IMG/VR virus record: IMGVR_UViG_3300002098_000007
Location: 1 to 55,215 of that record
Length of the DNA: 55,215 bases
Strand: one strand, 5' to 3'
DNA from: a virus
Part shown: positions 80-53,303 of the stretch, piece after piece
How positions within the stretch are numbered: position 1 is the first letter of the stretch
Layout: the number at the start of each line of letters is the position of its first letter
Notes under the pieces: model-generated
The model's database searches: none
What the model saw: the letters and a program-made list of their open reading frames with translations, nothing else
Told to the model about the DNA's origin: nothing
Made by a program: the position numbers and the translations under genes

Positions 80-178
80 GCGTATGCAAGAGGCCAACCC
101 GCGAGCGGCGATTTCAGGGTGTCCCGCGGCCACGTAGCGACGGCAAAGGGCGACTTCGCGTTGTTCAGATTTTGTCAT
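1..178 (-). CDS. Hypothetical early protein, 5' part of a gene split by the linearisation point (continues at 55136..55081; 77 aa when circularised)
   Basis: ATG at 178-176 is preceded by a GGAG RBS (aactggagtaactcaaATG). It reads MTKSEQREVALCRRYVAAGHPEIAARGL...ISQYG to base 1, and the frame continues through 55136 to TGA at 55083-55081. Each fragment is below the ORF-track size cutoff. Confidence 0.5.
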   Translation of the reverse strand, partial: MTKSEQREVALCRRYVAAGHPEIAARGLASCIRAARTRKSTQELLAEARALGLQISQYG

Positions 179-406
179 TTGAGTTACTCCAGTTAGAAAG
201 TTATTACGCTATTTGCTTACTGCTCAGTGCTTGAACAGTGGATTGAATTTTGGCTGAAAAAACGTTGAAAAACCGTTCATGCCCAAAATATTTTCCAATC
301 ACGTTTTCGGGGCCGATTGGCAAAAGCAATTCTGAAATGTATTTTTCCGTTTTCGCTCGGAATGAGGCAAAATTGCGGGCTCGCGCAACTCAATAACGTA
401 TAACGC
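179..406. promoter_or_regulatory. Divergent intergenic control region between the two genome arms
   Basis: A 228-bp A/T-rich non-coding gap lies between a minus-strand gene (start 178) and the plus-strand helicase (start 407). It contains tandem and inverted short repeats. No convincing sigma70 -35/-10 pair could be fixed by eye. Confidence 0.4.
255..276 (+). repeat. Tandem 11-bp direct repeat TGAAAAAACGT / TGAAAAACCGT
   Basis: Read directly at 255-265 and 266-276. Related inverted copies are acgttttcgg (301-310) and ccgttttcgc (348-357). A near-identical inverted copy, ccgttttcaacgt, lies at 7537-7549. Confidence 0.8.
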
Positions 407-1966: not shown

Positions 1967-2268
1967 AACCCGGCTACGTAAAACCGCCGCGCATTAAAGC
2001 GCCAAAAGAGATGCCCGTTGAGCATGCCACACGCATTCAGACGTACCTTGACAACGCTGTTCCTCCGTTGCACAGGCTCGTGACTGAGCGCGCCCTCACC
2101 GGACAGCTCGCTCGTGCCGCAGCGGTGAAGGTAAAATGTTTGTCCTGCTGCAATTTTGAGCGGGATGAGGTGAAGCACTGCGCAGTGGTGATTTGCCCGT
2201 TGCACCTAATCCGCCCGTATCAAGGCAAGCACACTATTGAGGACTCTGACGATGACGCCACCGCGTAA
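1963..2268 (+). CDS. Small Cys-rich (putative zinc-binding) protein
   Basis: 101 aa, with ATGA overlap onto the helicase stop. Cysteine cluster KCLSCCNFERDEVKHCAVVICPLH. Confidence 0.5.
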   Translation: MKPGYVKPPRIKAPKEMPVEHATRIQTYLDNAVPPLHRLVTERALTGQLARAAAVKVKCLSCCNFERDEVKHCAVVICPLHLIRPYQGKHTIEDSDDDATA

Positions 2269-15726: not shown

Positions 15727-16146
15727 ATGAAGTTCAACCCCGGCCAGCCGCACGGCACAATTGTGGGCCACGAGTGGGCCCGCTACGAGCAAAACGGCAT
15801 CCTCTACGACGGCGCGGGGTTGATCCCCGAGGCCGCCGCGGCAATAGACAAAGCCGCCGCGAAACCAGCTAAAAACGCGCCAGCGAGCAAAACAAAAACA
15901 GAAGCCAAGGCCGAGCCCAAGGCCCCCGCTCCGCAGGACGATTTGAAGCTAAAAAACGCCACCGAGTTCTTGACTAATTTGCTCTCCGGCGGGCCAATCG
16001 ACAAATCCGTTGTGTTCAAAGAGTCGGACAGCAACTGCCAAGACTGGGGCACCGTGAAGGCCGCCTTTGCGCAGATGAACGGGGTGAGCTTCAAGCGCGG
16101 GCAGTCTGAAATCTGGCGCCTGAACCCTGAGGAGGTTCAGCAATGA
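15727..16146 (+). CDS. Hypothetical protein
   Basis: 139 aa with a GGAGA RBS and a central Ala/Lys/Pro-rich linker. Confidence 0.55.
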   Translation: MKFNPGQPHGTIVGHEWARYEQNGILYDGAGLIPEAAAAIDKAAAKPAKNAPASKTKTEAKAEPKAPAPQDDLKLKNATEFLTNLLSGGPIDKSVVFKESDSNCQDWGTVKAAFAQMNGVSFKRGQSEIWRLNPEEVQQ

Positions 16147-28300: not shown

Positions 28301-29221
28301 ACCCTCACCAAAAAGGCGCTCGGCATCGCAGAAGACGCGGAGCTGTCAACTGAAACCCTCAACGCCGTACGCGCCAAGGCTGGCGAGGCGTATCAAGCTG
28401 TCAAGGACACCAAAGAACCCATTTACAGCAACACCAAATACAAGCAGTCGATTGACGCGCTGAGCAAAGACTGGCAGGCCGCTGAGCGGGACTTTCCGGA
28501 AATCGCCAAAAACAAGGGTGACATCACTGACTTGCAGAACATGATGCGCAAGGCGCAAATCAGTCCCACGGGGGCGATTGAGATGGTTAAGCAGTTGCGC
28601 AGCGAGGCTAAGACTAATTTGAAGGCATTTGACAAGCCCGACAAACAGGCCCTGGGCCGTGCGCAACGCCAGGCGGCTGAGGCGCTTGATCAACTCGTTG
28701 ATGACAACTTGAGCCAGAACACCCTAGTCACCAAAGCCAACCCCGACCTTGTAAAAAATTACCGTCAGGCACGGGAGCTTATCGCCAAGTCTTATGACGT
28801 TGAAACCGCCTTGAATGAGGCTACCGGCAACATCGACGCTGCTCGGCTGGGTCGGTTGTTGTCTAAGAAGCAGCTCACCGGCTACCTCAAAGACATTGCC
28901 GAGTTTCAGCGCGCATTCCCCAAGGCGGCACAGCTGCCTGAGCGTATAGGGGCCGCGCCGGGTATTAGCCCGTTGGACGTTGCTACTGCCGGAATAGAGG
29001 GCACTTCGGCGCTCGCAGCGGGTAAGCCCGGCCTTGCCGCGGGGGCTGTCGGCACTGTGCTAGGCCGTCCGGTTGCGCGCAGTATAGGGCTGAGCGAGAG
29101 ATACCAACGGGGGCCCGGCTCGGCGCAACAGTTTGACCTTTCAGGACGTAAAATTTTACCTAAAGGCGCGCCCCTCGGCGCTGCTGGAGCACAATCAGCT
29201 GTTGAGAGACAAGAACAATGA
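25325..29221 (+). CDS. Large internal virion / ejection protein candidate
   Basis: 1298 aa, the largest ORF of the block. It has several modules separated by Ala/Gly linkers, including [42 protein letters not shown]. Confidence 0.55.
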
Positions 29222-30552
29222 AATTACTCATCATCGATACCGACGGAGTCGGCTTGAGTTTCGCTTTCCGTGCTAGTATAGCGGGTCATCAAGTGCGTTG
29301 GTTTATAGAACCGAAACCTAGCAATAACAAAGCCACCGGCAACGGTTTTAAGGGTATTGAGAAGATCGATAACTGGGTGCCGTCGGTTAAGTGGGCCGAT
29401 CTCATCATCCAGACCAGCAACGACAAATACGTTGAGAAGCTAGACTTCTTCCGCAAGCAGGGGTATCCGGTGTTCGGCCCTACGCCTGAGAGCGCGAAGT
29501 TGGAGATTAGCCGCGGTGACGGTATGAAGTTGATGGAGAAGGTGGGCATTAAGACCGTCCCCTACGAAACGTTCAAAAACATGAACGAAGCTAAGAAGCA
29601 CGTTGAGAAAACGGGTGAGCGCTTTGTCTTCAAAACCCTGGGTGACAACGAGGACAAATCACTCACGTACGTGGCTAAGAGCCCCGCAGACCTGATTGGC
29701 TGGATGGAGCGTCTGATTGCTCGCGGCGAGCAGCCTAAAGGCGACGTCATGCTGCAGACCTTTGTTAAGGGTATCGAGATGGGCGTCAGCCGCTTTATGG
29801 GTAGCAAAGGCTGGGTTGGGCCCTGGAATGAGAGTTTTGAACACAAAAAGCTCATGCCCGGTAACTACGGCCCCAATACCGGCGAGATGGGCACAATTGC
29901 CTACTTCACCGAGGAAAGCAAGTTGGGCGAGGAAACACTGGGCAAGCTAGAAAAAGAGCTGCTCAAACTCGGCCACACCGGCGACGTTGCTCTCGGGTTC
30001 ATGATAGACGAAAAGGGCCAGCCCTGGCCCACGGAGTGGACGTGTCGCTTCGGTTGGCCCATTGCCAACATGATGCTCGGTGCGACCGAGGGCGACCCGG
30101 TTGAGTGGATGCGCGACGCGCTGAACGGTAAGGACACTACGTCCTTCAAAACTGATATCGGCTGCTGCGTGGTGCTGGCGCACGGGGACTTTCCGCACGG
30201 TAATATGACCAAGCGCGAAGTCTCCGGAGTTCCGCTCTACGGAGTTACTAAGGGTAACAAAAAGCACATCCACCCCCAGGCCATCAAGATTGACGTACTG
30301 CCCGATATGGACGGCGAACAGATGACCCGCCGCCCGTTGTGGAACACCTCGGGCGACTACGTAGCGGTGGTCACCGGGTACGGTCGGGACGTAAAGCAGG
30401 CTAGCTCTCGGGCCTACAAGACCGTTGAACAACTGCACATCAGCAATATAATTGTGCGTGATGATATTGGCGAAGAGTTAGAAGAAACCCTGCCCAAGCT
30501 GCACGCTATGGGTTATGCCCAACACTGTGAATTTGATACCGGGAGTAAGTAA
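29218..30552 (+). CDS. PurD-family (phosphoribosylamine-glycine ligase-like) ATP-grasp ligase, divergent
   Basis: 444 aa, colinear by eye with PurD. Matching blocks: VFGPT..SAKLE.S, FVFKT...(A-domain), [20 protein letters not shown] (vs DHKR..D.GPNTGGMG), [22 protein letters not shown] (vs GLMI...P.VIEFNCRFGDP) and a C-terminal ...VRDDIG. The N-terminal GGREHA motif is replaced by [10 protein letters not shown]. Confidence 0.8.
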
Positions 30553-41332: not shown

Positions 41333-41680
41333 TCAGTCTTCCGCCGTTAAAAACTCGTTCAGCTCAGCCGCGTCAAAGTCCCAGCGCTGAGGCACGTATT
41401 TGAAGTCCACTTTGTCCCACTTCAACACGTCCACCAGGCCGTGCTTTTCGGCAATCGCAATCATAGCTATACCGCAGAGCGTAGGGTCGCCGCTGATGAG
41501 CAAATAATCGCCCGGAACCCATTCGCCGAGCACCTTGCGAGCGTGAACAATCATCCGGGGGGTGTTATAGTTCCGCGCCACGTTGCCAAAGACATCCCGC
41601 AACGCGCCGTAACGCTCCGCGTCGGAGTAATTCTTGCGGCTGTCGTTATGCACGATGAACACTATACGTTCGTTATTCAT
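41333..41680 (-). CDS. Hypothetical protein
   Basis: 115 aa, overlapping the polymerase gene end by 8 nt. Confidence 0.55.
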   Translation of the reverse strand: MNNERIVFIVHNDSRKNYSDAERYGALRDVFGNVARNYNTPRMIVHARKVLGEWVPGDYLLISGDPTLCGIAMIAIAEKHGLVDVLKWDKVDFKYVPQRWDFDAAELNEFLTAED

Positions 41681-43511
41681 CTTTCTTTTTCCTCTTAGTT
41701 TTCTTTACTTCTACCCGGGCGAGTAGCTCGGGTGTTAAATACTCGGCGCAGCCGATGTCGCAGGAAATCTTAACCGCCTCGGTAATATACCACTCGTAGT
41801 CCAGGTCGGCGGGGTGCTCGCCCTGCGGGTCAATAGTCATACACGCGCGGGCGCCGTCAGACTTAGGCACCTTGTTGCCGTTAGTCTTGTACCGGATAGG
41901 CTCCAGCGCGGGATCATTGCTCTGATACCACCGCACCACCTTGCCCAGGTAGTTACCCATCTGCTCACCACCGCCGGTCACGTTCCGCGCACTTATAAAG
42001 TCCACAAATGGCGCGTTTTTAATGGTTTCAGCAAACGCCGTACCCCGGGCCAGCCACTGGCCTACAGCAGCCGCACAAACTCCCGCGGTGGCGTTCTTTT
42101 TTAGGCTCAGAGGGGCATAAATACCCTTCTCTTTAAGCGAGCGGTCAGGCTTCACCGCGATGTAGTTATTTACGTCCTTCATCGCCAACGCGCGGTAAGG
42201 CGTGAACTCAAAACGCAGCCCGGTGTGGAGCTCAAAAGCCTTTACGACGTTCTTCACCGTTTCTTCAATCTTACGGGGATAGCCTACTGCAATACCGTCA
42301 GTGTTCGCGCTTAAGGTTACGGCCTCAACCTGCTCAAGTCGCTCAATCAACATGAGCAGCGTGAACTGCCCAGTGAGCGTTACGGCGAGCATGAACTCCG
42401 GCGCGTACAGCACCGAGTATTTGCTAGCGAGCTTGCCGAACGTGCCGTTGAGCGAAATCTTCAACGTCTCATTGGTAGCCTTGTCGCCCGTGCGCTTGGC
42501 CTCGATTCGTTTGTCGTAGATCTTGCGGTATTCGTCCAGGAACTTCGACCCCACGGCCTCTGGGTACATACCGGCGAGCAAAATGAGTGAGGGGTAGAAC
42601 GACTCGGCGTCGATGTCGCATATGACATAATCCTCCCCCGCGACGTGACATACCTTACGGTCATGCGCGCTATGAATACCCCCCACGCCGAGCTGATAAA
42701 CACCGCCGTTAAACCCGACGAGCTCTTCCCCCAGGAAGTCCGGCAGTATGACGTGTCCGCTGAGCGGATTCATACGGAACGTGTGCTCGCTCACCCGTTT
42801 GAGCAGCGCACGCAGGTACTCGTTATTAAAGCACAAGAACCCGGGTGGAGCATAGCGAATGGTCTTAGGCACGGGAACATCTTGTCGCTTCAACTTGAGC
42901 GTGGCAATGTACGCCGCCTCTGCCATCTGCGAGTCCGACTTGCTACGCATGTCCACCCCATAACGGCGACTCATATCCACGCGGAGCAGCAGCTCTGAGT
43001 CTAAACGACGTAGCAGCTCTTCAGTCGTGTCTAGGTCGTTCCAGTTGTACTCGTCAATCTGCTGCTTCTGTTCATCGTTGACCTCGGCGTCATGCGCCAA
43101 CGGCATGTCCTGCAACTTGGGCATGTGCATTCGCGCGCCGTAGGCTTTTAAACCTACAAACGAGGGCGCAACTTCAATCAAGTCGATTGAGTCAAACGGC
43201 ACAGGCGCTAAGTTGAACTGTCGGCGCGCAACCCAGGGTTTTAAACGCCGCACGATGAGCGCATCCGCAATGCGTTTGATTTCTAGCTCAGTCCGCCCTG
43301 CGCAGAACGCATCAACAATCACATCGTCAAAAGAATGATTATTGAATCCGACAAAAGTGGTGTCCGGTTGGAGCATGAACTCACGCAGGCGTGCCGGGGC
43401 GTCAGGCTCATTGCGGCGAAACTGCTTACGGCGGCCTGAGTCGACATCCTTAAACCCGACCACTGTGTAATTGGGCAGGGTCTCAAAATCGAATACAAGG
43501 GTAGGCATCAA
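41673..43511 (-). CDS. Family B DNA polymerase with a 3'-5' exonuclease domain
   Basis: 612 aa. Exo motifs: FDFET, NHSFDD, YNWND. Pol motifs: A DIDAESFYPSLI, B KISLNGTFGKL, C SANTDGIAV. Confidence 0.8.
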   Translation of the reverse strand: MMPTLVFDFETLPNYTVVGFKDVDSGRRKQFRRNEPDAPARLREFMLQPDTTFVGFNNHSFDDVIVDAFCAGRTELEIKRIADALIVRRLKPWVARRQFNLAPVPFDSIDLIEVAPSFVGLKAYGARMHMPKLQDMPLAHDAEVNDEQKQQIDEYNWNDLDTTEELLRRLDSELLLRVDMSRRYGVDMRSKSDSQMAEAAYIATLKLKRQDVPVPKTIRYAPPGFLCFNNEYLRALLKRVSEHTFRMNPLSGHVILPDFLGEELVGFNGGVYQLGVGGIHSAHDRKVCHVAGEDYVICDIDAESFYPSLILLAGMYPEAVGSKFLDEYRKIYDKRIEAKRTGDKATNETLKISLNGTFGKLASKYSVLYAPEFMLAVTLTGQFTLLMLIERLEQVEAVTLSANTDGIAVGYPRKIEETVKNVVKAFELHTGLRFEFTPYRALAMKDVNNYIAVKPDRSLKEKGIYAPLSLKKNATAGVCAAAVGQWLARGTAFAETIKNAPFVDFISARNVTGGGEQMGNYLGKVVRWYQSNDPALEPIRYKTNGNKVPKSDGARACMTIDPQGEHPADLDYEWYITEAVKISCDIGCAEYLTPELLARVEVKKTKRKKKDE

Positions 43512-43762
43512 CGATCCTGATTCACGTAACTTGAAGTGGGTTCTTCGCCGTTGTCAAGAATCTTGTTCTGAACCTCGATATATTTCTCCAAGAAATGCAA
43601 CGCCTTCTGCAGGTCGGTAATACCGTTCTTCTTTTTCCAGCGAGTGACGTACTTGGTGATTTGAGCCTGGAAATAGTCAAGATCATTAGCCAGCACGTAG
43701 TCCCAGTGCTGAATGCTAGATTTATAGTGCGAGCCGCCCACTTGTTTGTCATTTGCTTTCAT
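43508..43762 (-). CDS. DUF3310-family protein
   Basis: VGGSHYKSSIQHWDY...ITKYVTRWKKKNGITDLQKALHFLEKY. ATG 43762 was chosen because the ORF-track start at 43780 is TTG. Confidence 0.6.
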   Translation of the reverse strand: MKANDKQVGGSHYKSSIQHWDYVLANDLDYFQAQITKYVTRWKKKNGITDLQKALHFLEKYIEVQNKILDNGEEPTSSYVNQDR

Positions 43763-44252
43763 TTGCGTACATTTCCCCAATCAGTTTAAACAGTTTGTAT
43801 TCTTTGTGCACGGGCATCATGTCCCATGCGTAGGACATATACCGATGATACACATCGGCCATTTTGTGGTTGCCGAGCTGAATTTCACGAATGCAGAACA
43901 GCGCGCCATGGGCAATGTCGGCTAGTTTCAGAGTGCGATATTCCCAGTCTTCCAGGTCAGGTAACGGGAAACCGCCGTCCTTCAGCAGGGACTCCTCAAC
44001 ACGGCTGACTTGATCACCGATGCCGTAGAGACGTTTTGCGGGAGAGGGAATGTCGCCGGTTTTTTGCTCAGCCAGGTCATGAACCAGCGCGGCGGTTAGT
44101 AATTCAGCGGTGGCGTCTGGAACCATGAGTAGGCATAACAACGCAACACCGTGAGAGTGATGCCCCACGGTGTCCGCGGCTAGTGTGCGTACGGTATGAT
44201 ATCGGCGGACATCCGACCCGTTGAGCATAAATTCCAAGTTTGAAAGGTTCAC
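43749..44252 (-). CDS. HD-domain phosphohydrolase, YfbR-like 5'-deoxynucleotidase
   Basis: 167 aa with a GTG start after GGAGA. Motifs: RYHT...TVGHHSHGVA, VHDLAEQKTGDIPSPAK, KLADI. Confidence 0.75.
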   Translation of the reverse strand: MNLSNLEFMLNGSDVRRYHTVRTLAADTVGHHSHGVALLCLLMVPDATAELLTAALVHDLAEQKTGDIPSPAKRLYGIGDQVSRVEESLLKDGGFPLPDLEDWEYRTLKLADIAHGALFCIREIQLGNHKMADVYHRYMSYAWDMMPVHKEYKLFKLIGEMYANESK

Positions 44253-44291: not shown

Positions 44292-44325
44292 AATTTTAGC
44301 CCTGTTTTTACGCAGGGCTAAAATT
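44292..44325. other. Perfect 13-bp inverted repeat (aattttagccctg / cagggctaaaatt) forming a stem-loop
   Basis: Stem 44292-44304 / 44313-44325 with an 8-nt loop. It lies in the 72-nt gap between the ThyA-like and HD genes, and the right arm abuts the ThyA-like stop codon. Confidence 0.8.
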
Positions 44326-45311
44326 TATTTTTCTGCCAGTGCGAGCTCCCGGCGATGAATCCAATCGTTAGCGGCGCGGCGAATGTCTTCATGAGTGATT
44401 TTGGCAGCCCAAGCGGAACCGTCACCGGCTTTAGTCTTACGGGTGTGGCTGATCATAGCGAGGGGGTAGGCCACGTTGGTGAAGAACGGGTGAGAGTAAC
44501 GGCGGATTTTAATCGGATCATCGCAGAACAACTCACACTCTTCAAGAAACGTGCGGTAGCTACCCGCACCGAGTATAGGCGCCGGGCGCACCAGGCACGC
44601 TGAATACAAGTCGTAGTCCTCGGCCACCGGGGGGTTCTCAATATACTTAGTCGCTGAGTACAACTCAGTATACAAGTGCAGGTTGGTACTGAAGGTGCGG
44701 TACACCCCCAAGTTGACACACACCGCGGAGGCTACAAACTCCTGCACAACGCTGAAGTGAACGATATTAGCCCCGGCGTAACCCCACCACGCATCGTTGC
44801 TACGGTTAATCACCGTCATGTTGAGCTTTTCGTTCTGAATTTCAAAGATGAGCTGCATGTTGCAGGCTTTGTCTTTAGTGTTTTTGGTCAAATCTTCCGG
44901 GGCCCACATCTGCACCACGGCCTGGCGGGTGTCGTGGTTCTTGCGCAGTTGTTGAATGACCTCAATCAACTGATCGTTTCCAAAGTGATGACGCCAGCGG
45001 TAACCATAGGCAGCGTTAAAAATCTTCCCGTTGTCCGAGTACGCCCCAATCTTGCTGTTGAAGCGCTTCAAAAACGCGACGTCGCGCCGCCCGGCGAGCA
45101 TCCAAATCGGCTCCAACATGTGGAAAATGGGGTTAGCGTCTCGCCCATGGTGAAACAAGATACGCTCCTGAGGATACTTTACAGTTGTCATTACAGGCTC
45201 GGGGATGCGCAGGGCAGGGCCATTGCGCGTTTCAACCGGAATGCCAGAGGTCTTCAAACGCCAGAACATATCTTGAAACATTGTATTTGCGTTACGTGTG
45301 GTGATTTCCAT
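44325..45311 (-). CDS. Divergent thymidylate synthase (ThyA)-family enzyme; candidate dUMP hydroxymethylase
   Basis: 328 aa. Motifs: YGYRWR, DQLIEVIQQLRKNHDTRQAVVQMW, KACNMQ (Cys nucleophile retained; PCH->ACN), RSNDAWWGYAGANIVHF, STNLHLY. A ~60-aa C-terminal extension is present. Confidence 0.7.
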   Translation of the reverse strand: MEITTRNANTMFQDMFWRLKTSGIPVETRNGPALRIPEPVMTTVKYPQERILFHHGRDANPIFHMLEPIWMLAGRRDVAFLKRFNSKIGAYSDNGKIFNAAYGYRWRHHFGNDQLIEVIQQLRKNHDTRQAVVQMWAPEDLTKNTKDKACNMQLIFEIQNEKLNMTVINRSNDAWWGYAGANIVHFSVVQEFVASAVCVNLGVYRTFSTNLHLYTELYSATKYIENPPVAEDYDLYSACLVRPAPILGAGSYRTFLEECELFCDDPIKIRRYSHPFFTNVAYPLAMISHTRKTKAGDGSAWAAKITHEDIRRAANDWIHRRELALAEK

Positions 45312-45313
45312 CT

Positions 45314-46171
45314 TCAGAACTCCGTCTCAGGTTTGTAAAGTGTTCTAGGGGCGCCTTCGTTAAAGATCACCTTGCAGTATTTACTATACTCGCAAAGGCA
45401 ATTCTGTACGTCATGTAGTGTCAGGTCGGTTATACTCAACTTGTCAACGATTTCAGCCCTTATTTTGATGAGCGCCGCGTTGAATGAGTCTTGATTCCAC
45501 GTGTGATACGGCTTGAACCCGTAGACGTAATTCAGCCCGCGTTGGCTACCGGGGCCTAAGGGCGCAAAGGTATGCAAGTCCGGCGCCCGGCCCAGTTGCC
45601 GCCGCATATAGGTCAAATCTGCTGCGACCTGCCCCGCGATGAAGGTGCTGACGCCGAAACACTTAGACATTTCATGCACAAAGCCCTCAATTCGACCGGC
45701 GCGCAGCGCCATACGGATGAGCGGGGCGCGCTTAATCACGTCGCTAATTATGTGCTCACACATAGCCTCAGCTTTACCGCGGCCCTTGTTCTTTGTCGGA
45801 AAGACCATATACGCGCCCGAATAGACTTTGCCGTGTGTTTTAGCGTCCTCAACAACTTTTATGAACCCCGCAGCGTTGAAACCCTCCGCGTAGGTTGGCA
45901 ACACCTTGGCATCAATCAGCCGCTGCAGAGTCGGCGGCCAGTTGATTAACCGAGCCAGGAACAGCGTGAACCACAAGTCCGGTGCGTCAGCCTGGGGGGC
46001 GATTAGGTGATCGATGATCCACTTTGAAACCCTATCGTCTTTGCGACGGATATTAGTGAATTTGTACTTCTGTAGAACTAAGTCTTTAGTCCATGGGGCG
46101 GGCGCCCCGGCCTCGCGCTTCAAGCGAATTGACTCGCGCTCAAACACAAACTCTAACAACATGTCATTCAT
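45314..46171 (-). CDS. Candidate aGPT-Pplase-type DNA base hypermodification transferase (285 aa)
   Basis: The N-terminal ERESIRLKREAGAPAPWTKDLVLQKYKFTNIRRKDDRVS motif is recalled for alpha-glutamyl/putrescinyl thymine pyrophosphorylase-like proteins. The gene is sandwiched between the ThyA-like gene and the P-loop kinase. Not verified by search. Confidence 0.45.
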   Translation of the reverse strand: MNDMLLEFVFERESIRLKREAGAPAPWTKDLVLQKYKFTNIRRKDDRVSKWIIDHLIAPQADAPDLWFTLFLARLINWPPTLQRLIDAKVLPTYAEGFNAAGFIKVVEDAKTHGKVYSGAYMVFPTKNKGRGKAEAMCEHIISDVIKRAPLIRMALRAGRIEGFVHEMSKCFGVSTFIAGQVAADLTYMRRQLGRAPDLHTFAPLGPGSQRGLNYVYGFKPYHTWNQDSFNAALIKIRAEIVDKLSITDLTLHDVQNCLCEYSKYCKVIFNEGAPRTLYKPETEF

Positions 46172-46749
46172 TGCTCGAACTCCCAGAAGACCTGCACCAG
46201 CGAAGGATGCGGGTCGGTGTAATTGATCACGCGTACATCAAACCCCCCGGCAGCTTTCAGGTTACGGTAGCAGTTCACCACGCTTTTGAACTTGTCTACT
46301 AGGTTCACAGGGTCAAAAGGTTTAGCGTTACCCGCAGCGGCCCGGCGGCCTTTTACGCGCTCGATGCACAACTCCTCAGGGGTGTTCAAAAACGCGTACA
46401 CATCGCACCCCGTGGGGTGAATAGACTGCGTAACCGCACCCGCGAGCCCCGAGGCTGAGACAAGGGCGCCCTCGAACAAAACATGCCCCCGGGCGTGCGC
46501 CTTGTGTATACGCTCGGCAATCTCGTCCTGAGTCTTGATTGAATCCGTCCCACCGCAGACGTTGTCGTATTTGCCGACTATAAAGATCGGCTGCTGTACG
46601 AGCGCCGCGCTCGCGTCACACTTGTAACCCATGATTTTACCCGCCGAGTTGCGCAGTTCGGTAGTGGGGTATCGAGTCATGAACTCGCGCACCGCGGTGG
46701 TCTTACCCGAACCGAACGTACCGCGAACTGAGAGTATGGCTCGCCTCAT
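46168..46749 (-). CDS. P-loop kinase; candidate 5-hmdU DNA kinase
   Basis: 193 aa. Walker A RGTFGSGKTT. Small size and ATGA coupling on both sides fit the call. Confidence 0.55.
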   Translation of the reverse strand: MRRAILSVRGTFGSGKTTAVREFMTRYPTTELRNSAGKIMGYKCDASAALVQQPIFIVGKYDNVCGGTDSIKTQDEIAERIHKAHARGHVLFEGALVSASGLAGAVTQSIHPTGCDVYAFLNTPEELCIERVKGRRAAAGNAKPFDPVNLVDKFKSVVNCYRNLKAAGGFDVRVINYTDPHPSLVQVFWEFEQ

Positions 46750-46925
46750 TTCTCACCCCCGAACGCCAAGTGCAGCAACAAATACCACATCGCTAAATGT
46801 GCGGCGTCAGATCTGCCCGTTTTATTGAACACTTCCGCGTAGTGTTTGTGCCAACCGTAGTTGTCGCTGCCGAGGGGTAAATTGCTCAGCCGCTTAAGCG
46901 CATGCTGCCGTTGCTTGGGTGTCAT
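46746..46925 (-). CDS. Small hypothetical protein (59 aa)
   Basis: Not in the ORF track. It reads MTPKQRQHALKRLSNLPLGSDNYGWHKHYAEVFNKTGRSDAAHLAMWYLLLHLAFGGEK. Its stop overlaps the kinase ATG (ATGA), and it starts 3 nt after the upstream stop. Confidence 0.45.
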   Translation of the reverse strand: MTPKQRQHALKRLSNLPLGSDNYGWHKHYAEVFNKTGRSDAAHLAMWYLLLHLAFGGEK

Positions 46926-46928
46926 TTG

Positions 46929-47954
46929 TTATTCCTTTACGTTATAGCGCTCGGGCCGGTACTCACCAAGCCTGATGAGCGAACCCGTCGCGGGGAAAAT
47001 TTTAGCCTTTTCCGCAACGCTGCGGTATTTATTTTCGCACTCAGCGCGGAGCCAGTTTGGCAGCCTATCGGAGCGTATGTCTTTGAATACTTCGGTATAT
47101 TCCTGCAGGTTGCGTTCATCTGCCCATAGGATCCGCTCCCAGGCCATATCAGCGTAAACCCCAGGGTAACGACGACCGAAGAAGTGATTCTTAAACGTGC
47201 ACAAGTTGCTCTCAAGTGTGAATAGAGAGGCGCCGGTCAGCTCGGGGTGTTGAGACTTGAACAGATCGAGCCAAATGTCCGCCCCCGCGGCTAAGAAGGC
47301 ACACATCGGTTTGAAGTTATTGTATTCACCGGTCTGCCCGTTAGGTAGCCGCTTGTCCCACACGAGATCATCTTTACCGAGCAGGAACAGCATTCCGTTA
47401 CGGTGCGACTTGCTGCCCGACTTGTCCTCAAACAACAGACTGTCACAGTCCGCGCCGAACCCCTTCAGGTAGACATACTCCAAGTAGCTGAATGAGGACA
47501 ACCGTCCGAATGAGTAGTAATTCCCGCGCACCAGCGTCCAGAGCTGTGAGTACGTTTTACCGCTCAGCATTCCCTCCTGAGAGCCATGACTATCAACCAG
47601 TTCAGCGTATCTCTTTATAGCTATTACGGTTTCTTTTTTCTGATACCTGCGGTCTGTATCGAATTGCAATGTGTCCCATTCGCTGTTGAACCACTCTTCA
47701 AACTTGCTGAGTGTTGAGCCCGCGGGCGGACACTCGGGCAGGCGTTCAAACAGCCTGAGAGAGGTGATAGGGTTCTGCGTCATGCCGTTGAGGAACGCGA
47801 ACCATAACTTCTGCTCAGCGCCCCACCCGTTACGCTGCGCCAGCTCGGGCATGTACAAGTATACCAGGCCGGGCATAATCCGGTGCTCTAGGTTCATAGC
47901 GTACAAATCCGTAAAGAACTGATTTCGGTTTTCCGGCAGTCGGTAGTCAATCAT
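46929..47954 (-). CDS. Candidate second DNA-hypermodification transferase (aGPT-Pplase clade-2 / amino-acid:DNA-transferase-like), 341 aa
   Basis: A large helical protein with no motif I can place in a housekeeping family. Its position inside the kinase/ThyA/PLP cluster supports the call, but the family assignment rests on context and memory only. Confidence 0.35.
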   Translation of the reverse strand: MIDYRLPENRNQFFTDLYAMNLEHRIMPGLVYLYMPELAQRNGWGAEQKLWFAFLNGMTQNPITSLRLFERLPECPPAGSTLSKFEEWFNSEWDTLQFDTDRRYQKKETVIAIKRYAELVDSHGSQEGMLSGKTYSQLWTLVRGNYYSFGRLSSFSYLEYVYLKGFGADCDSLLFEDKSGSKSHRNGMLFLLGKDDLVWDKRLPNGQTGEYNNFKPMCAFLAAGADIWLDLFKSQHPELTGASLFTLESNLCTFKNHFFGRRYPGVYADMAWERILWADERNLQEYTEVFKDIRSDRLPNWLRAECENKYRSVAEKAKIFPATGSLIRLGEYRPERYNVKE

Positions 47955-48084
47955 TCAAACTCTCCATTATTCCAAGCGCGGCAATGTACATAAAAAGCAA
48001 CCCGACTAAAGCCACAACCCCCACCCCAAGCAGTGCGCAAAGGACAAAGACGTTAGCAACGTCTTCAAATATAACAATATTCAT
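47947..48084 (-). CDS. Small membrane protein (45 aa)
   Basis: Not in the ORF track. It reads MNIVIFEDVANVFVLCALLGVGVVALVGLLFMYIAALGIMESLND and overlaps the downstream start by 8 nt. Confidence 0.4.
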   Translation of the reverse strand: MNIVIFEDVANVFVLCALLGVGVVALVGLLFMYIAALGIMESLND

Positions 48085-48086
48085 AC

Positions 48087-48299
48087 TCACCACCTTACGT
48101 CAGATTCAAGTCTGCGATCAACCGCGAACCCGAGCGCTAAGCCGAAAACCACGGTAAAGTAACGCGCCGACCATGCCCAATCTACCGGATTACGCGACCA
48201 TTCCACAAATGCACCTAAGGCGTAAGCAAACGCTAAGGTGCTGGCAAAGGGCATAAACCAGTACAATACGTGCCCCAGGTCGGTTGCGAGTTTTTTCAT
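48087..48299 (-). CDS. Membrane protein (70 aa, two predicted TM segments)
   Basis: ATG 48299 follows GGAGA and overlaps the upstream stop (ATGA). It reads MKKLATDLGHVLYWFMPFASTLAFAYALGAFV...YFTVVFGLALGFAV. Confidence 0.5.
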   Translation of the reverse strand: MKKLATDLGHVLYWFMPFASTLAFAYALGAFVEWSRNPVDWAWSARYFTVVFGLALGFAVDRRLESDVRW

Positions 48300-48484
48300 T
48301 TCGCTTCTCCAGTTATGTTGTGATAGACCTCCACCCAGCGTACGATTTGTTCTAGGCTCTGCCATGGGCCGTAGTTCTTCTGTATAACCTGCGCGGGCAT
48401 GGGCTCAATAATTTTGGCGTCAACAATCACGCCCTCGTGGTCTCGAATCAAAGTTACCGCCTGCGCGGTTGAGGCGTTGCTCAT
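48296..48484 (-). CDS. Hypothetical protein
   Basis: 62 aa, ATGA-coupled to the PLP-enzyme gene. Confidence 0.5.
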   Translation of the reverse strand: MSNASTAQAVTLIRDHEGVIVDAKIIEPMPAQVIQKNYGPWQSLEQIVRWVEVYHNITGEAK

Positions 48485-49440
48485 ACGGGCTCCTTGTGCG
48501 TGTAGAAAGGTTCAATCACTTTAGGGTTAGGGGTCGAGCCTACAATCCAGAACCCGGCTTTGTCATCAAAATTGAGCTCATTATTTTGTCTCAAATAACG
48601 CCAAATTTTTGCCTCGTACGTGGGATGAAAATGAATACCGTCATGGCTCTCCCCTTTGAACTTGTCGCTGTACGCGCTAAACTTCATGTCGTGCAGGCTG
48701 ACATGAGACCAGTGGAAAGGGAGATGATCAATATTAACCCCCATAATCGCCATTCTCTCACGCACCCACTTGCGCTTGTCGGGGCCGATTCCGTAGGTCA
48801 TCAGAAAGTCTACATTTTTAGGGTCTCGGCTCAGGCCGAGCAGGATGCTGCAAAGCGAGTTACACGAGCCCGCGGGCGCTATCAACGTGCGGAGCTCGAG
48901 CGGCAGGTTGCGCACCTGATTGGCACCGACCTCATGAAACTTGAGCACATCCTCCGCGGGGTAGCGGTCATGCGGAACGGTGATGCCGTACTCAACCACT
49001 AGCGAGGCGGGCTTAGTCAGGTCGGCCACGCGGCGTTGAATGATCGGGTTGTACGGCCCATTTACATACTCAAAGTGCGCGCCGAACCCCGCTGCAATAC
49101 GTGGGTTCTCGTGCGTGAGCAGGGTGTGTGGCCTGCTGTAGACCACCTGCCGAGCGATGAGCCCATAGTGTGCTCCTACAATCGCGGACATGCTCAGCTG
49201 CGGGCTCTGCACACTTGCTCCGGTGAGTATGTGAGTCTTCTGCGCTCTGTATCTATTAATGTACCAGATGAGCTGGCGCATCTTGCTGCCGTTGGGGCCG
49301 CCATAGCCTAGCGGCGCAAAGTAATCCTCACGTTTGAACCAGAGCCCCTGGTGATTCTCCCACGGGGTGAACTCGCCCAGGCTCTTCTCCCAATGAACCT
49401 GAGCGCGATCAAGCGTGTGAACAGGAAAAATGCTGCTCAT
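48481..49440 (-). CDS. Fold-type II PLP-dependent enzyme (ACC deaminase / D-cysteine desulfhydrase / Trp-synthase-beta-like)
   Basis: WFKREDYFAPLGYGGPNGSKMRQLIWYI matches the KRED...GGNKxRKL lysine motif region. ATG 49440 follows GGAG. The longer ORF-track start (49596) would overlap the upstream gene by 80 nt. Confidence 0.65.
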   Translation of the reverse strand: MSSIFPVHTLDRAQVHWEKSLGEFTPWENHQGLWFKREDYFAPLGYGGPNGSKMRQLIWYINRYRAQKTHILTGASVQSPQLSMSAIVGAHYGLIARQVVYSRPHTLLTHENPRIAAGFGAHFEYVNGPYNPIIQRRVADLTKPASLVVEYGITVPHDRYPAEDVLKFHEVGANQVRNLPLELRTLIAPAGSCNSLCSILLGLSRDPKNVDFLMTYGIGPDKRKWVRERMAIMGVNIDHLPFHWSHVSLHDMKFSAYSDKFKGESHDGIHFHPTYEAKIWRYLRQNNELNFDDKAGFWIVGSTPNPKVIEPFYTHKEPV

Positions 49441-49516
49441 TTCAAATACTCCAGTATTCCCGTAATAGTGTCTACCACTGAACAAATGGTCATTAGGATG
49501 ATCATTCCTCTGATTT

Positions 49517-49738
49517 TCATGTGTGCTTCTCCCAAAGTTTTTCAAAACACGGTTTGCAACAATCAAATGTGCCATATTCACCACCTGAGCCATCAATAGA
49601 CATAATTGTTGTCACGTTTTCACAAATTTCGCATGTGTATGTACCAATTTCAATACCTACACTTCGACCATAAACAGGTTTTTCAGAATCAAACACTGAT
49701 TTTCTTGTAGCCATCCACGTTTTCCATAATTCAGACAT
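49517..49738 (-). CDS. Zinc-ribbon-like small protein
   Basis: 73 aa with CEIC...CCKPC. Confidence 0.5.
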   Translation of the reverse strand: MSELWKTWMATRKSVFDSEKPVYGRSVGIEIGTYTCEICENVTTIMSIDGSGGEYGTFDCCKPCFEKLWEKHT

Positions 49739-50012: not shown

Positions 50013-50591
50013 TTACTCCTTAATGCCGTGGGCGGCTTTGTACCCTGCATAAATAGGCGTTCTGCCTTCTGGCACTTCTTCGCCATATCCGTTGAAGATG
50101 TAAATGTTGTTGATGGCAAGGTCAGCGTGACCAATCAATTCCAATCGCTCATCGGTCAGCGGCTTGCGCTGTGGTGGGGTGGTGTACAAACCAACGTCAC
50201 CTTCTTCGGGTTCAAGCCCAAGGTTTACACGCCAATCTTTTGCGCCCGCATACGCATTGCTTCGCATTACCAAAAGTTCTTTGGGGCTAATCCACGCCAC
50301 GGGTTCCTGATCTGGCTCTTTGTGCAACAACTCAAACAACTCTGCAACCTGCTCGTTTGTATAAACACCAACATGTGAATCAGGAAACTTAACCCATTGT
50401 CGGTCTGTTCCTGAAATATGAATAACGCAATATTCCTCTGTCTCAAGGCATATCAACCTGTCGCCACGGCGATACTTGCGCTGTGCCAACAAATCAGCCG
50501 CCGCTTTTAATGCTTCGCTATCCCTCGGCAATGTGACTGTTGGATACTTCGCCATTTCGCGCAATGCTTTAATAATTTCTTCTGTGTTCAT
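50013..50591 (-). CDS. Accessory protein, EPVAW/LYTTPPQRKPLT/AAHGIKE paralogue family
   Basis: 192 aa. It contains DQEPVAW, LYTTPPQRKPLT and the C-terminal AAHGIKE. Confidence 0.6.
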   Translation of the reverse strand: MNTEEIIKALREMAKYPTVTLPRDSEALKAAADLLAQRKYRRGDRLICLETEEYCVIHISGTDRQWVKFPDSHVGVYTNEQVAELFELLHKEPDQEPVAWISPKELLVMRSNAYAGAKDWRVNLGLEPEEGDVGLYTTPPQRKPLTDERLELIGHADLAINNIYIFNGYGEEVPEGRTPIYAGYKAAHGIKE

Positions 50592-50594
50592 GTC

Positions 50595-50825
50595 TTACTC
50601 CTTTATGCCTTGGGCGGCTTCTCGCAGCCCTTGAAATTTAAGTTGACTGAGAGCTTCGCAGCGTTCGCAACGATGGCGCAGCGCGATTGACCCCGCGTTG
50701 TACAGATCGTTGTCGTTGCAGCTTGTGCGGTCATGCTCAGGCCACACGGCATCAATCTTTTCGCGGTCGGTCAAGTTGGTTAGCTCAGTGCTCCACCAAG
50801 TAACTTCTTTTTTCTTTTTACCCAT
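50595..50825 (-). CDS. Accessory protein ending in AAQGIKE
   Basis: 76 aa. It shares the family C-terminus and junction sequence. Confidence 0.55.
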   Translation of the reverse strand: MGKKKKEVTWWSTELTNLTDREKIDAVWPEHDRTSCNDNDLYNAGSIALRHRCERCEALSQLKFQGLREAAQGIKE

Positions 50826-50828
50826 TTC

Positions 50829-50933
50829 TTACTCCTTTATGCCGTGTGCGGCTTCGCTGGCAAAAATTTGCCAACAACGTTTGCAGATAATCCAATCACG
50901 CATTGCGGGTCTGCCGCAGTGTTCGCATTTCAT
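50829..50933 (-). CDS. Mini zinc-ribbon protein (34 aa) ending in AAHGIKE
   Basis: Not in the ORF track. It reads MKCEHCGRPAMRDWIICKRCWQIFASEAAHGIKE. Its ATG overlaps the upstream stop (ATGA), and it has the same C-terminal junction cassette. Confidence 0.45.
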   Translation of the reverse strand: MKCEHCGRPAMRDWIICKRCWQIFASEAAHGIKE

Positions 50934-51310
50934 GCTTCCCCCTTGATGCCGTGGGCTGCTTTTTCAATTGCTCGGTATTCCGCAAAACTGATGCTCAATG
51001 CAGCTTCTGCCAGTGCGTCTGTCTTAAATAACGGGCGTATTGCGGCATACATTTCATCTCTCGTAAGCGGCTTGCGCTGTGGTGGGGTGGTGTAGAGAGG
51101 CACAGTGTGCAATGGCCCGCCGTTTGTCCGCACCTTCATGTCAAAGTTTTGCAAGTCGTTTGGGTTAGCCCACGCCACAGGCTCTTGCTCTGGCTGTTCT
51201 GGAACCATCTTGGTGACGGTCACATCATTAGGTAGGTCATACGGCTGCTCAAATTCAAACCATCTTGCTTGTTCGTTCTCGCACATCCAGATTTCTTTTG
51301 GTAGTTTCAT
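50930..51310 (-). CDS. Accessory protein, EPVAW/LYTTPPQRKPLT paralogue
   Basis: 126 aa with EQEPVAW, LYTTPPQRKPLT and the C-terminal AAHGIKGEA. Confidence 0.6.
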   Translation of the reverse strand: MKLPKEIWMCENEQARWFEFEQPYDLPNDVTVTKMVPEQPEQEPVAWANPNDLQNFDMKVRTNGGPLHTVPLYTTPPQRKPLTRDEMYAAIRPLFKTDALAEAALSISFAEYRAIEKAAHGIKGEA

Positions 51311-51313
51311 GTC

Positions 51314-52147
51314 TTACTCCTTAATGCCGTGGGCCGCTTCGATGGCTCGGGCAAAGCAAACCAATTCAAAGTCAGGCGCGGCAATAGTCGGCCCGTTTTC
51401 TTCGCCATCTGGGTAATTGGCTTCAAGAATCTGCTCGTTCGTTAGTTGGTTACGGATTGGATTGTTGATGTAATGACTGCATCCTTCTTGATGTCCGTTG
51501 TACGTCAAACACTCACGGCAATAACTTGCCACAGGCTCCTGTTCTGGCTCTTTGGGTTGTGCCTTCACATAACCCCATGCAGTAGCAAGACGGGCTTGGG
51601 TTGATTTGCAATTTAAGTTTTGCTCTGGTTGTGGTGGGGTGGTGTAGAGCGCCTGAACTTCTTTAGCAATTGCCACAGCCAAGTCGCTGTCCATTGTCTT
51701 GTTTGCGTTTTCCTCGTAGCACCAGCCACGGGCAACAGCGCCAAGTAAACTTTCCCACGCCACAGGCTTTTGTTCTGGCTTGCCTATGCCAACGCCAGTC
51801 TGCACAAGTTTTATGCGCTCTAAATCGCCTTGTGCGTTCTCCATCAACTGATAGTCTGATGTGGCGTTGTATTGCTGTGCCCCGCAGTTGCACTCACCCT
51901 TTGGATACGCTGGCTCGTTGTGAACAGCGCAGTCGCTTGCGTGCAAAGTCACTTTGCAATTTGGGCATTGACACGGCTCTGGCTGTGCCAAGGCTTTTTC
52001 GATGGCGGTAATGGCAGGGCCGCAAGCGTTTGAAGCCTCCAGCACATGATGAAGCGGTGGGTCAATGTCCCAAGCCATAAGTTCTTCTGCCAGCGCAGAG
52101 TCACACTTCTTCAACGCCTCAAGCGCCAGCTTCAATGCTTCTTTCAT
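51314..52147 (-). CDS. Accessory protein, multi-module EPVAW/LYTTPPQ paralogue with Cys clusters
   Basis: 277 aa with EQKPVAW, LYTTPPQPEQ, EQEPVAS, CQCPNC...C..H...CNC and the C-terminal AAHGIKE. Confidence 0.6.
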   Translation of the reverse strand: MKEALKLALEALKKCDSALAEELMAWDIDPPLHHVLEASNACGPAITAIEKALAQPEPCQCPNCKVTLHASDCAVHNEPAYPKGECNCGAQQYNATSDYQLMENAQGDLERIKLVQTGVGIGKPEQKPVAWESLLGAVARGWCYEENANKTMDSDLAVAIAKEVQALYTTPPQPEQNLNCKSTQARLATAWGYVKAQPKEPEQEPVASYCRECLTYNGHQEGCSHYINNPIRNQLTNEQILEANYPDGEENGPTIAAPDFELVCFARAIEAAHGIKE

Positions 52148-52389
52148 GCTTCACCTCTTGCTCGGATTGCTTTAGCTGCGGCAGTTCCATAAATCCTCAC
52201 GCCTGTTGGAATATGCGTATCGCAAACCGTCTTTTGAGCAAGAATTGCACACGCCTCACGCTCGGCCTCTGCTACCAGTTTGGCAAAGCGGCTCAAATCA
52301 TGTTTGTCACATTGAAAAAATAAACCATTTGTTGAGTTGTTGATTCCAGCTTGTCTAGCCATTTCAATGATTTCTGTTTGTGTTGTCAT
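52144..52389 (-). CDS. Accessory protein, MARQAG...EREACA...IRARGxA family, copy 1
   Basis: 81 aa. It reads EIIEMARQAG...FAKLVAEAEREACA...AIRARGEA. Confidence 0.6.
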   Translation of the reverse strand: MTTQTEIIEMARQAGINNSTNGLFFQCDKHDLSRFAKLVAEAEREACAILAQKTVCDTHIPTGVRIYGTAAAKAIRARGEA

Positions 52390-53015
52390 GGCTGAACTCC
52401 AAAGTTATATCCAATCAACTGACAGAACAAACGGTATTGCTCTAAATGCTCTTTGTTTTCTTTATGAGATTTTTCGATTTGTTTTGAAAACTCTGCAACC
52501 GTTCCAGTAAAGCAACCACAAACAACTCGAACACCGATTTTTTCATCCATAAAAGCCGTGGTGAATCTGCCTGACGATTTGGCAGGGCCGATCAGTAGCC
52601 AATGAGTTCTATCAGACACTTGAGCATTGCCAGACACCTGAGCATTGCCAGACACCTGAGCATTGCCAGACACCCGAGCATCGCCATACACCCGAGCATC
52701 GCCAGACACCCGAGCATCGCCAGACACCCGAGCATTGCCAGACACCCAAGCATTGCCAGACACCCAAGCATCGCCATACACCCAAGCATTGCCAGACACC
52801 CAAGCATTGTCATACACCCGAGCATTGCCAGACACCCAAGCATTGCCAGACACCCAAGCATCGCCAGACACTTGAGAAAGATTTTTCTCTGATTCAATAT
52901 ATCCACCCAAATCATTAGGCGTTACCAATGAACCAATTGCAACAAGTGCGCGAATTCGGTACAAAGTTTTTCCAAAAACCTGCTTTGTGTCTGTTTTTAC
53001 AAGTTCATATTTCAT
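52386..53015 (-). CDS. Hexapeptide-repeat (left-handed beta-helix-like) protein
   Basis: ATG 53015 follows AGAGGA (MKYELVKTD...). It carries about 15 consecutive 6-aa units, (G/Y)(N/D)A(W/R/Q)VS. The ORF-track start at 53069 lies in a duplicated gene-start remnant. Confidence 0.65.
   Translation of the reverse strand: MKYELVKTDTKQVFGKTLYRIRALVAIGSLVTPNDLGGYIESEKNLSQVSGDAWVSGNAWVSGNARVYDNAWVSGNAWVYGDAWVSGNAWVSGNARVSGDARVSGDARVYGDARVSGNAQVSGNAQVSGNAQVSDRTHWLLIGPAKSSGRFTTAFMDEKIGVRVVCGCFTGTVAEFSKQIEKSHKENKEHLEQYRLFCQLIGYNFGVQP
52613..52876. repeat. 18-bp tandem repeat array, 14 full units plus one partial (cagacacc[c/t][g/a]agcat[t/c]gc)
   Basis: Units start every 18 bp from 52613 to 52865 (counted individually). 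They encode the hexapeptide repeats on the minus strand. Confidence 0.9.
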
Positions 53016-53054
53016 AACAATGCGTCCTCTGTTTGTGCGCGTTGTTGTTGCGCG

Positions 53055-53079
53055 TATCCATGATTTCATCTTGTGTCAT
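53055..53079. repeat. 25-bp direct repeat, copy 1 (tatccatgatttcatcttgtgtcat)
   Basis: Identical to 53279-53303. It carries a second, orphan copy of the MTQDEIMD gene start. Confidence 0.9.
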
Positions 53080-53303
53080 GCTTTACCTCTTGCTCGAATC
53101 ATGGTGGCAAACCTTCTAGGCCATTGACTTTGACTTTCTTTGTCAACTTCATCACACAAGTTTGCACACGCCTCACGCTCTTTAGCTGCTACCAGTTGGG
53201 CAAAGGCTTCAATCATGGCGTAATTGGTTCCAATCGGGTCGCCAATGTGCGTCACCACAAATCCAGCCTGTCTAGCCATATCCATGATTTCATCTTGTGT
53301 CAT
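53076..53303 (-). CDS. Accessory protein, MARQAG...EREACA...IRARGxA family, copy 2
   Basis: 75 aa. It reads EIMDMARQAG...FAQLVAAKEREACA...MIRARGKA. Confidence 0.6.
   Translation of the reverse strand: MTQDEIMDMARQAGFVVTHIGDPIGTNYAMIEAFAQLVAAKEREACANLCDEVDKESQSQWPRRFATMIRARGKA
53279..53303. repeat. 25-bp direct repeat, copy 2
   Basis: Identical to 53055-53079. It covers the true start of gene 53076..53303. Confidence 0.9.

Follow-up and report, generated by a model that had tools for sequence, protein, structure and literature searches.

Does a phage gene cluster that encodes two transferase-like proteins attach two different adducts to the viral DNA, or only one? The question is raised by a 341-amino acid (aa) open reading frame (ORF) in the IMG/VR virus record IMGVR_UViG_3300002098_000007, a whole contig of 55,215 nucleotides (nt) that is hereafter called the window (positions in table 1). 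The original prediction, made from the letters of the window, had tentatively linked this ORF to the aGPT-Pplase clade 2 or amino acid:DNA transferase (AADT) type, and had proposed that it may represent a second DNA transferase beside a 285-aa protein encoded nearby. The evidence assembled here allows us to assign the anonymous ORF as an AADT with confidence and corrects the two-transferase idea: the 341-aa protein is likely to be the sole recognizable transferase of its operon.

A Conserved Gene of the AADT Family

The ORF opens with an ATG preceded, 5 nt upstream, by a GGAGAG Shine–Dalgarno sequence. It lies between the kinase block and the micro-ORFs, where the original prediction had placed it, and the peptides quoted there match its translation. 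Because 888 homologs were retrieved at an E-value of 1e-3 or below from a collection of 5.8 billion proteins, and because six further metagenome contigs encode an identical protein, it is a genuine, conserved gene. The best 120 of these 888 homologs are 64–73% identical to the 341-aa protein, and all of them (120/120) match PF18724. Cultured phages gave no megablast match to the 6-kb cluster, which indicates a lineage without a close reference genome, and the DNA polymerase of the window is at most 40% identical to cultured phage polymerases (tblastn). The lineage has thus no close cultured relative, yet has hundreds of metagenomic homologs.

The 341-aa protein itself matches PF18724 (55.2 bits against a cutoff of 26.2; E-value of 1.1e-14; residues 43–195), which Pfam labels "ADDT, amino acid:DNA transferase" and which was formerly named aGPT-Pplase clade 2, as well as phrog_3271 in PHROGs (E-value of 1e-58). 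M6 gp51, PaMx11 gp46, and ViI gp247 all fall into PF18724 in the same Pfam library. Along with PhiW-14 gp109, which uses putrescine, these enzymes transfer a donor (glycine for M6 gp51 and PaMx11 gp46, serine for ViI gp247) to 5-phosphomethyl-2'-deoxyuridine (5-PmdU) in DNA (PMC8989533).

Because the Pfam envelope stops short of the catalytic motif, the latter (E248-S249-N250-L251-C252-T253-F254-K255) was assigned from alignment and fold. E248, C252, K255, and Y263 are invariant in an alignment with M6 gp51, PaMx11 gp46, and ViI gp247, and the pair E248/C252 corresponds to the Glu-x3-Cys pair E243/C247 of PaMx11 gp46. The same positions are conserved in 46 diverse homologs, some of them as little as 22% identical: Glu in 45 of the 46, Ser or Thr at the next position in all 46, Cys in 45, Lys in 43, and Tyr in 46. 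The Cys and the nearby Glu were shown by mutagenesis to be essential in M6 gp51 and ViI gp247 (PMC8989533), and the active-site metal is bound by a Glu–Thr pair, E243/T244 in PaMx11 and E222/T223 in phage 15599 (PMC11472151; PMC13458397). The equivalent pair in the 341-aa AADT would be E248-S249, in which Ser is a conservative substitute for Thr and is predicted to play the same role.

The AlphaFold2 (AF2) model of the 341-aa AADT is all helical and of high confidence (predicted local distance difference test [pLDDT] 96.6; predicted template modeling score [pTM] 0.93). Foldseek, which the original prediction had suggested running on such a model, placed chains of PaMx11 gp46/PUGT, with and without DNA (8z2m/8z2n), as its top three matches in the PDB (probability of 1.00; template modeling [TM] scores of 0.51–0.60). 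These were the only confident matches, those ranked below being noise. The protein is accordingly modeled with the all-alpha, two-bundle fold of PaMx11 gp46 and of YuA Pplase2. In BFVD, the top matches of the model are named "Amino acid:DNA transferase domain-containing", with query TM scores (TMq) of up to 0.88. At the sequence level, phmmer with the single 341-aa protein against PDB sequences returned only a spurious FERM/RhoGEF match (E-value of 0.82), so that a family profile was needed, which retrieved the YuA AADT 25qc (E-value of 0.007) and 8z2m; the fold search was decisive. The family suggested by the original prediction is therefore borne out by the PF18724 match, by E248/C252, and by the PaMx11 gp46 fold.

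A different identity, that of a DNA glycosylase of the helix-hairpin-helix (HhH) type, or of a repair or DNA-binding protein rather than a modifying enzyme, could be proposed because HhH glycosylases are distant relatives of the superfamily and because the 8-oxoguanine glycosylase (OGG) Tm1821 appears in the Foldseek list. This match, however, stands at rank 10 with a probability of 0.30, while the confident structural matches are AADTs only. Moreover, the AADT-specific Glu/Cys/Lys/Tyr motif is conserved, and the gene lies in an operon with a kinase, a pyridoxal phosphate (PLP) enzyme, and a thymidylate synthase (TS)-like enzyme, to which partners its relatives are also found fused. We therefore regard a role outside DNA modification as extremely improbable.

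One Transferase or Two?

The 285-aa protein matches PF18723 (148.5 bits against a cutoff of 25; E-value of 3e-43). Pfam now calls this family, formerly aGPT-Pplase clade 1, "5-hmdU DNA kinase, helical domain", a name that reflects annotation, not assay (5-hmdU, 5-hydroxymethyl-2'-deoxyuridine). Its gene and that of the kinase share 4 nt. In M6 and PaMx11, the PF18723 proteins gp55 and gp50 are likewise each encoded directly after the kinase, and this gene pair is accompanied by one PF18724 gene. In SP10 gp186, the kinase domain (PF18748; residues 35–193) and PF18723 (residues 313–598) are joined in a single polypeptide. The presence of both paralogs is in fact the known norm in M6, PaMx11, ViI, and PhiW-14. 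As the "single-transferase" pathways of M6 and PaMx11 already hold both proteins, two paralogs do not imply two adducts, and the contrast that the original prediction had drawn with such pathways disappears. Functional data point the same way: in M6 lysates, the kinase gp54 and the AADT gp51 are sufficient, the product being still formed without gp55, and the SP10 kinase domain is active alone (PMC8989533).

The reading in which both proteins, of 285 and 341 aa, act as DNA transferases, making two adducts or working in two sequential transfers, has nevertheless to be weighed against sequence and fold. No similarity between them had been seen by eye, in agreement with a nonsignificant pairwise BLASTP (E-value of 0.18). 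The 285-aa family, however, has an invariant C260-E261...K264, which hhalign sets over the ExxxC..K motif of the AADTs in a collinear alignment (LESNLCTFK over VQNCLCEYSK). This suggests remote homology of the two families, although at an E-value of 0.0075 the hhalign probability is only 5%. In this lineage, moreover, Q256, four residues before the Cys, replaces the Glu of M6 gp55 and PaMx11 gp50 (EHTLCEF), and this is the position aligned with the AADT metal ligand. There is also a weak fold likeness between the two clades, "HMUDK helical" proteins appearing at ranks 16–18 of the BFVD search with the AADT model (TM scores of 0.35–0.48), but the model of the 285-aa protein (pLDDT 91.5) has as top Foldseek matches OGG (probability of 0.92), Tm1821 (TM scores of 0.43/0.55), and AlkA glycosylases, and not PaMx11 gp46. 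Very remote kinship of the two families within a superfamily of HhH-glycosylase-like proteins, which has been proposed in the literature, is probable.

Two further facts could speak for a second transferase: SP10 is listed with the kinase-fused paralog only, yet makes glutamyl-thymidine (PMC5889632, Table 3), and part of the 5-hmdU is turned into plain thymine in such phages (PMC8989533), by an enzyme unnamed in the cited literature. On the other hand, gp55 is dispensable in M6, M6 and ViI hold both paralogs with one hypermodified base reported for each, and PF18723 is either fused to the kinase or encoded by a gene overlapping that of the kinase. On balance, two transferases appear improbable, and neither the two adducts nor the sequential chemistry put forward in the original prediction is retained. 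The converse candidate that SP10 could suggest, in which the 285-aa protein is the transferase, was rejected as the main reading on account of the dispensability of M6 gp55, the link to the kinase, and the glycosylase-type fold.

We favor for the 285-aa protein a role beside the kinase, as a partner that likely binds DNA or flips the base. The conserved Cys in this "helical domain" protein nevertheless suggests, from its sequence, a functional site. The chemistry of this clade-1 Cys-Glu-Lys site might be, for example, the conversion of the remaining 5-hmdU into plain thymine.

Operon Organization

The genes around the AADT appear to form a complete, compact thymidine-hypermodification operon of a known type, in an uncultured phage of about 55 kb. 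They follow one another on the minus strand in the order 371-aa PLP enzyme, three small ORFs, AADT, 59-aa ORF, kinase, 285-aa protein, TS-like protein, HD hydrolase, DUF3310-like ORF, and DNA polymerase (table 1).

Table 1. Features of the hypermodification operon, with positions in the window.
Feature	Position	Strand	Evidence
PLP-dependent enzyme, ViI gp226 homolog, 371 aa from a TTG start	48481..49596	-	BLASTP; phrog_3650, E=8e-74
Three small ORFs (48/45, 92/70, 62 aa) between PLP gene and AADT	47947..48484	-	ORF list; gene calls on L007–L009
AADT (PF18724), 341 aa	46929..47954	-	ORF list; Pfam; PHROGs; AF2/Foldseek; BLASTP
Catalytic motif E248 to K255 of the AADT	47190..47213	-	Translation ESNLCTFK; alignment with characterized AADTs
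59-aa ORF between AADT and kinase	46746..46925	-	ORF list; called as a gene on L007–L009
P-loop 5-hmdU DNA kinase (5-HMUDK), 193 aa	46168..46749	-	PF18748 HMUDK_HMUD1
285-aa clade-1 paralog (PF18723)	45314..46171	-	Pfam; synteny; AF2/Foldseek
TS-like protein, presumed dUMP hydroxymethylase supplying 5-hmdU	44325..45311	-	PF00303, E=2e-21; phrog_5131, E=3e-99
HD-domain 5'-deoxynucleotidase-like hydrolase, presumed nucleotide-pool editor	43749..44252	-	PF12917 YfbR-like, E=7e-10
DNA polymerase, downstream end of the syntenic block	41673..43511	-	tblastn, <=40% identity; synteny with M6, PaMx11, L006

The kinase gene, located 180 nt downstream of the AADT gene, encodes a protein of the same family as M6 gp54 (PF18748; 32.7 bits against a cutoff of 27; E-value of 6.8e-8). 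The TS-like protein is 39% identical to M6 gp58 (E-value of 6e-81), and the HD hydrolase shares its gene position with M6 gp59 and PaMx11 gp52. The whole block from the kinase through the PF18723, TS-like, and HD genes to the polymerase is syntenic with M6 gp54–gp62 and PaMx11 gp49–gp55. The order PLP enzyme, AADT, kinase, PF18723, TS, HD, and polymerase is also kept on the contigs that carry an identical AADT. In the relative L006, whose AADT is 65% identical, the order is PALP, AADT, kinase, PF18723, TS, HD, DUF3310, and polymerase.

At the upstream end, the 371-aa protein has no Pfam match and was identified through tblastn and BLASTP to ViI gp226; gene callers applied to an identical contig give it a 364-aa start. 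Two of the three small ORFs that follow it (those of 48 and 92 aa) are hydrophobic, and the 59-aa ORF has no Pfam match. Since L006 lacks both the three small ORFs and the 59-aa ORF, its PLP gene overlapping the AADT gene directly, these ORFs are lineage-specific inserts that lie outside the conserved pathway. Radical S-adenosylmethionine (rSAM), flavin adenine dinucleotide (FAD)-lyase, and acetyltransferase tailoring domains were looked for and not found in the window ORFs scanned. No ORF of the size of a dUTPase or dCTP deaminase was seen downstream of the primase gene, where L006 has one and to which spot the search was limited.

The functional coherence of these genes is also apparent from protein fusions. 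Several relatives of the AADT (P0128, P0129, P0137, P0140, P0147, and P0152), 38–43% identical in the AADT part, are multidomain proteins. The fusion partners of AADT relatives are P-loop kinases (AAA_18, Ploopntkinase3, and, in a 1278-aa protein, HMUD2), a Tet/JBP oxygenase domain, and PALP, which is joined to the AADT domain in a 730-aa relative. Such proteins may be read as Rosetta-stone links for the whole pathway. Furthermore, the tblastn matches of the AADT and of the PLP enzyme have nearly the same distribution among cultured phages, with the exception of mycobacteriophages, in which only the AADT is found.

Proposed Pathway

These data lead us to consider it likely that the operon is of the canonical type for post-replicative thymidine hypermodification and that the 341-aa protein is its single AADT. 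The chemistry we infer from that of characterized homologs. In a first step, the TS-like enzyme would produce 5-hmdUMP, and the phage polymerase would incorporate 5-hmdU into DNA. The P-loop kinase would then phosphorylate 5-hmdU in DNA to give 5-PmdU, probably aided by the 285-aa HhH-fold protein. In a third step, the AADT would flip the base of 5-PmdU in double-stranded DNA. Cys252 would attack C6, the phosphate would depart with the assistance of a divalent metal held by Glu248/Ser249, and the resulting exocyclic methylene would be trapped by the nucleophile of a free amino acid. The Cys-addition mechanism is that of PMC8989533, and the metal requirement comes from PMC13458397. Finally, the PLP enzyme would decarboxylate the adduct, as ViI gp226 does for O-serinyl-thymidine (PMC8989533).

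This last step is suggested by the similarity of the 371-aa protein to ViI gp226 (BLASTP, 33% identity; E-value of 2e-55), in which K105, within the sequence GSKMRQ, aligns with K92, the proposed PLP lysine of gp226 (PMC8989533). Similarity to the M6 PLP enzyme gp52 is weak (E-value of 0.002). M6 gp52 is inactive on N-alpha-linked glycine until an rSAM enzyme frees the amine (PMC8989533). Because no rSAM isomerase was found in the ORFs scanned, the alpha-amine of the donor must remain free, which makes a side-chain linkage to the DNA the most likely arrangement.

Amino Acid Donor

Our best guess for the donor, by analogy with ViI, is L-serine, which would give O-serinyl-thymidine (O-SerT) and then 5-(2-aminoethoxy)methyl-2'-deoxyuridine (5-NeOmdU). 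We propose serine because the closest characterized AADT is the ViI serine transferase gp247 (BLASTP, 26% identity over 89% of the query; E-value of 3e-24), because the PLP enzyme is of the gp226 type, and because the two AADTs share motifs, GRLSxF/W and GSxSxRNG, which are absent from the glycine enzymes in our alignment. Pairwise similarity to the glycine enzyme M6 gp51 is not significant (E-value of 0.076). The combination of a gp226-type decarboxylase that retains its PLP lysine with the lack of an rSAM domain in the ORFs scanned would also be that expected of a ViI-type pathway. Mapping of the glycine-pocket residues of PaMx11 (D24, Y47, Y51, W146, and K150) onto the 341-aa AADT was attempted with a MAFFT alignment, but only motif-level positions were used because the register elsewhere is ambiguous at 15–18% identity.

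Several observations weigh against our interpretation of the protein and of its operon. Identity to any characterized AADT is low, 26% for ViI gp247 and 13–15% for PaMx11 gp46 (Foldseek alignments), and the Pfam match covers residues 43–195 only. ViI has two kinases, whereas the window has one. The residue that follows the catalytic Cys is Thr253, whereas it is Trp in ViI (serine), Lys in YuA and M6 (glycine), and Gly in phage 15599 (diaminopropane). This position helps set the donor, being Lys where glycine is used and Gly where diaminopropane is (PMC13458397). As Thr253 differs, serine is only a guess. The pocket of the ViI cluster, in which Trp follows the Cys, is not found either, since Thr253 is accompanied by a Glu–Cys spacing one residue shorter. 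For these two reasons we do not file the 341-aa AADT as a member of the ViI cluster; it is the pathway of ViI that it most resembles.

An enzyme of the same family and mechanism could thus use a donor other than serine, such as threonine, homoserine, cysteine, or a basic amino acid linked through its side chain. Thr253 is unlike the Trp, Lys, and Gly of the characterized clusters, and the position is variable across the clade (in the 46 diverse homologs, T19, A7, C6, S3, W3, and G2). Two pocket positions, this one among them, can reprogram donor choice, and many clusters of the published network are uncharacterized (PMC13458397). Moreover, the E-value of 3e-24 to ViI gp247 is far weaker than the 1e-50 cutoff of that network, and the nearest cultured relatives, 35% identical, are found in cluster-B-like mycobacteriophages and are uncharacterized. 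On the other hand, both the AADT and the PLP enzyme are closest, among characterized proteins, to the ViI serine pathway, and ViI gp247, unlike the glycine enzymes, has the same GRLSxF/W and GSxSxRNG motifs. A nonserine donor is therefore possible but less probable than serine; if true, the phage carries an undescribed thymidine hypermodification after decarboxylation. Likewise tentative is the joint proposal that the Thr-type AADT clade, which is abundant but uncultured and is paired with a PLP decarboxylase of the ViI type, uses an undescribed donor (none of serine, glycine, putrescine, and diaminopropane) and that the clade-1 site has a 5-PmdU chemistry of its own.

The 341-aa AADT belongs to a known enzyme family in a known operon type. 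Because its donor-specificity residue is unlike that of every characterized enzyme, it is a sensible candidate in which to look for a further DNA adduct.

Comparison with Characterized Systems

The closest functional parallel, ViI gp247/gp226, shares with the window the Glu...Cys...Lys...Tyr site and the GRLSxF/W and GSxSxRNG motifs of the AADT, and in both cases there is no rSAM isomerase. The differences concern first the genome, ViI being a 157-kb myovirus with dispersed hypermodification genes and two kinases, whereas the window has one compact operon and one kinase. They also concern the enzyme: ViI gp247 is 411 aa long, with extra N- and C-terminal extensions, and has an ExxxxC motif followed by Trp, whereas the 341-aa AADT has ExxxC followed by Thr.

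By contrast, the operon logic, together with the order of the kinase, PF18723, TS-like, HD, and polymerase genes, is like that of M6 gp51–gp55 and PaMx11 gp46–gp50, and PaMx11 gp46 (8z2m, 8z2n) has the same fold and an equivalent catalytic Glu-x3-Cys (E243/C247). The M6 and PaMx11 AADTs, however, attach glycine through its alpha-amine and have Lys after the Cys plus W146/K150, whereas the window AADT has Thr253 and lacks GPWIGFK. Tailoring also differs, with rSAM and PLP enzymes in M6, an FAD lyase and an acetyltransferase in PaMx11, and only the ViI-type PLP enzyme in the window. The operon thus seems to mix ViI-like tailoring (AADT and PLP enzyme) with an M6/PaMx11-like core, which fits the modular gene pool proposed for hypermodification genes (PMC8989533). 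As for SP10, the fusion of kinase and PF18723 in gp186 mirrors the 4-nt gene overlap in the window, but no second Pplase paralog is listed for this phage (PMC5889632, Table 3), whereas the window has a separate PF18724 transferase.

The closest cultured homologs are the AADTs encoded by gene 3 of BobbyK, Zemanar, and JAMaL (35% identity; 98% coverage; E-value of about 1e-46). These AADTs share the ExxxC-T motif, and the BFVD model with a TMq of 0.88 is that of the homolog from phage Fortunato. Unlike that of the window, the mycobacteriophage cassette has no adjacent PLP enzyme or PF18723 protein; its Tet/JBP component implies that 5-hydroxymethyluracil is made by oxidizing T in DNA, not by a dUMP hydroxymethylase. 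In Mycobacterium phage BobbyK, this cassette lies at the genome end (1..3462) and has four genes. They encode a ParB-like protein, a Tet/JBP-like dioxygenase, an AADT that is annotated as hypothetical and probably starts with CTG, and a P-loop kinase-3 that bears the annotation "adenylate kinase". Thymidine hypermodification by this route would begin with the oxidation of T in DNA.

Other Features of the Window

A run of tightly packed or overlapping early ORFs (50013..53303, minus strand) encodes proteins with near-identical C-terminal tails. The tail ends in AAHGIKE or AAHGIKGEA in five of them (50013–50591, 50595–50825, 50829–50933, 50930–51310, and 51314–52147) and in IRARGEA or IRARGKA in two others (52144–52389 and 53076–53303). 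They share the internal modules LYTTPPQRKPLT and EQEPVAW, none has a Pfam match, and they resemble members of a paralogous family in which small phage proteins have been assembled by module shuffling. Within the same region, 52386..53069 (minus strand) encodes a 227-aa protein made of GNAWVSG/GDARVSG repeats, with a YdcK beta-solenoid repeat match (E-value of 7e-21) and a weak bactofilin match; its repetitive DNA also gives rise to long but spurious ORFs, in other frames as well as on the plus strand.

Two unusual enzymes are encoded on the plus strand among the structural genes: a 524-aa protein in which a methyltransferase is fused to a GT9 heptosyltransferase-like domain (16143..17717), and a 444-aa GARS-type ATP-grasp protein (29218..30552) located between two ORFs of about 1290 aa. 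Both could be virion-modifying enzymes.

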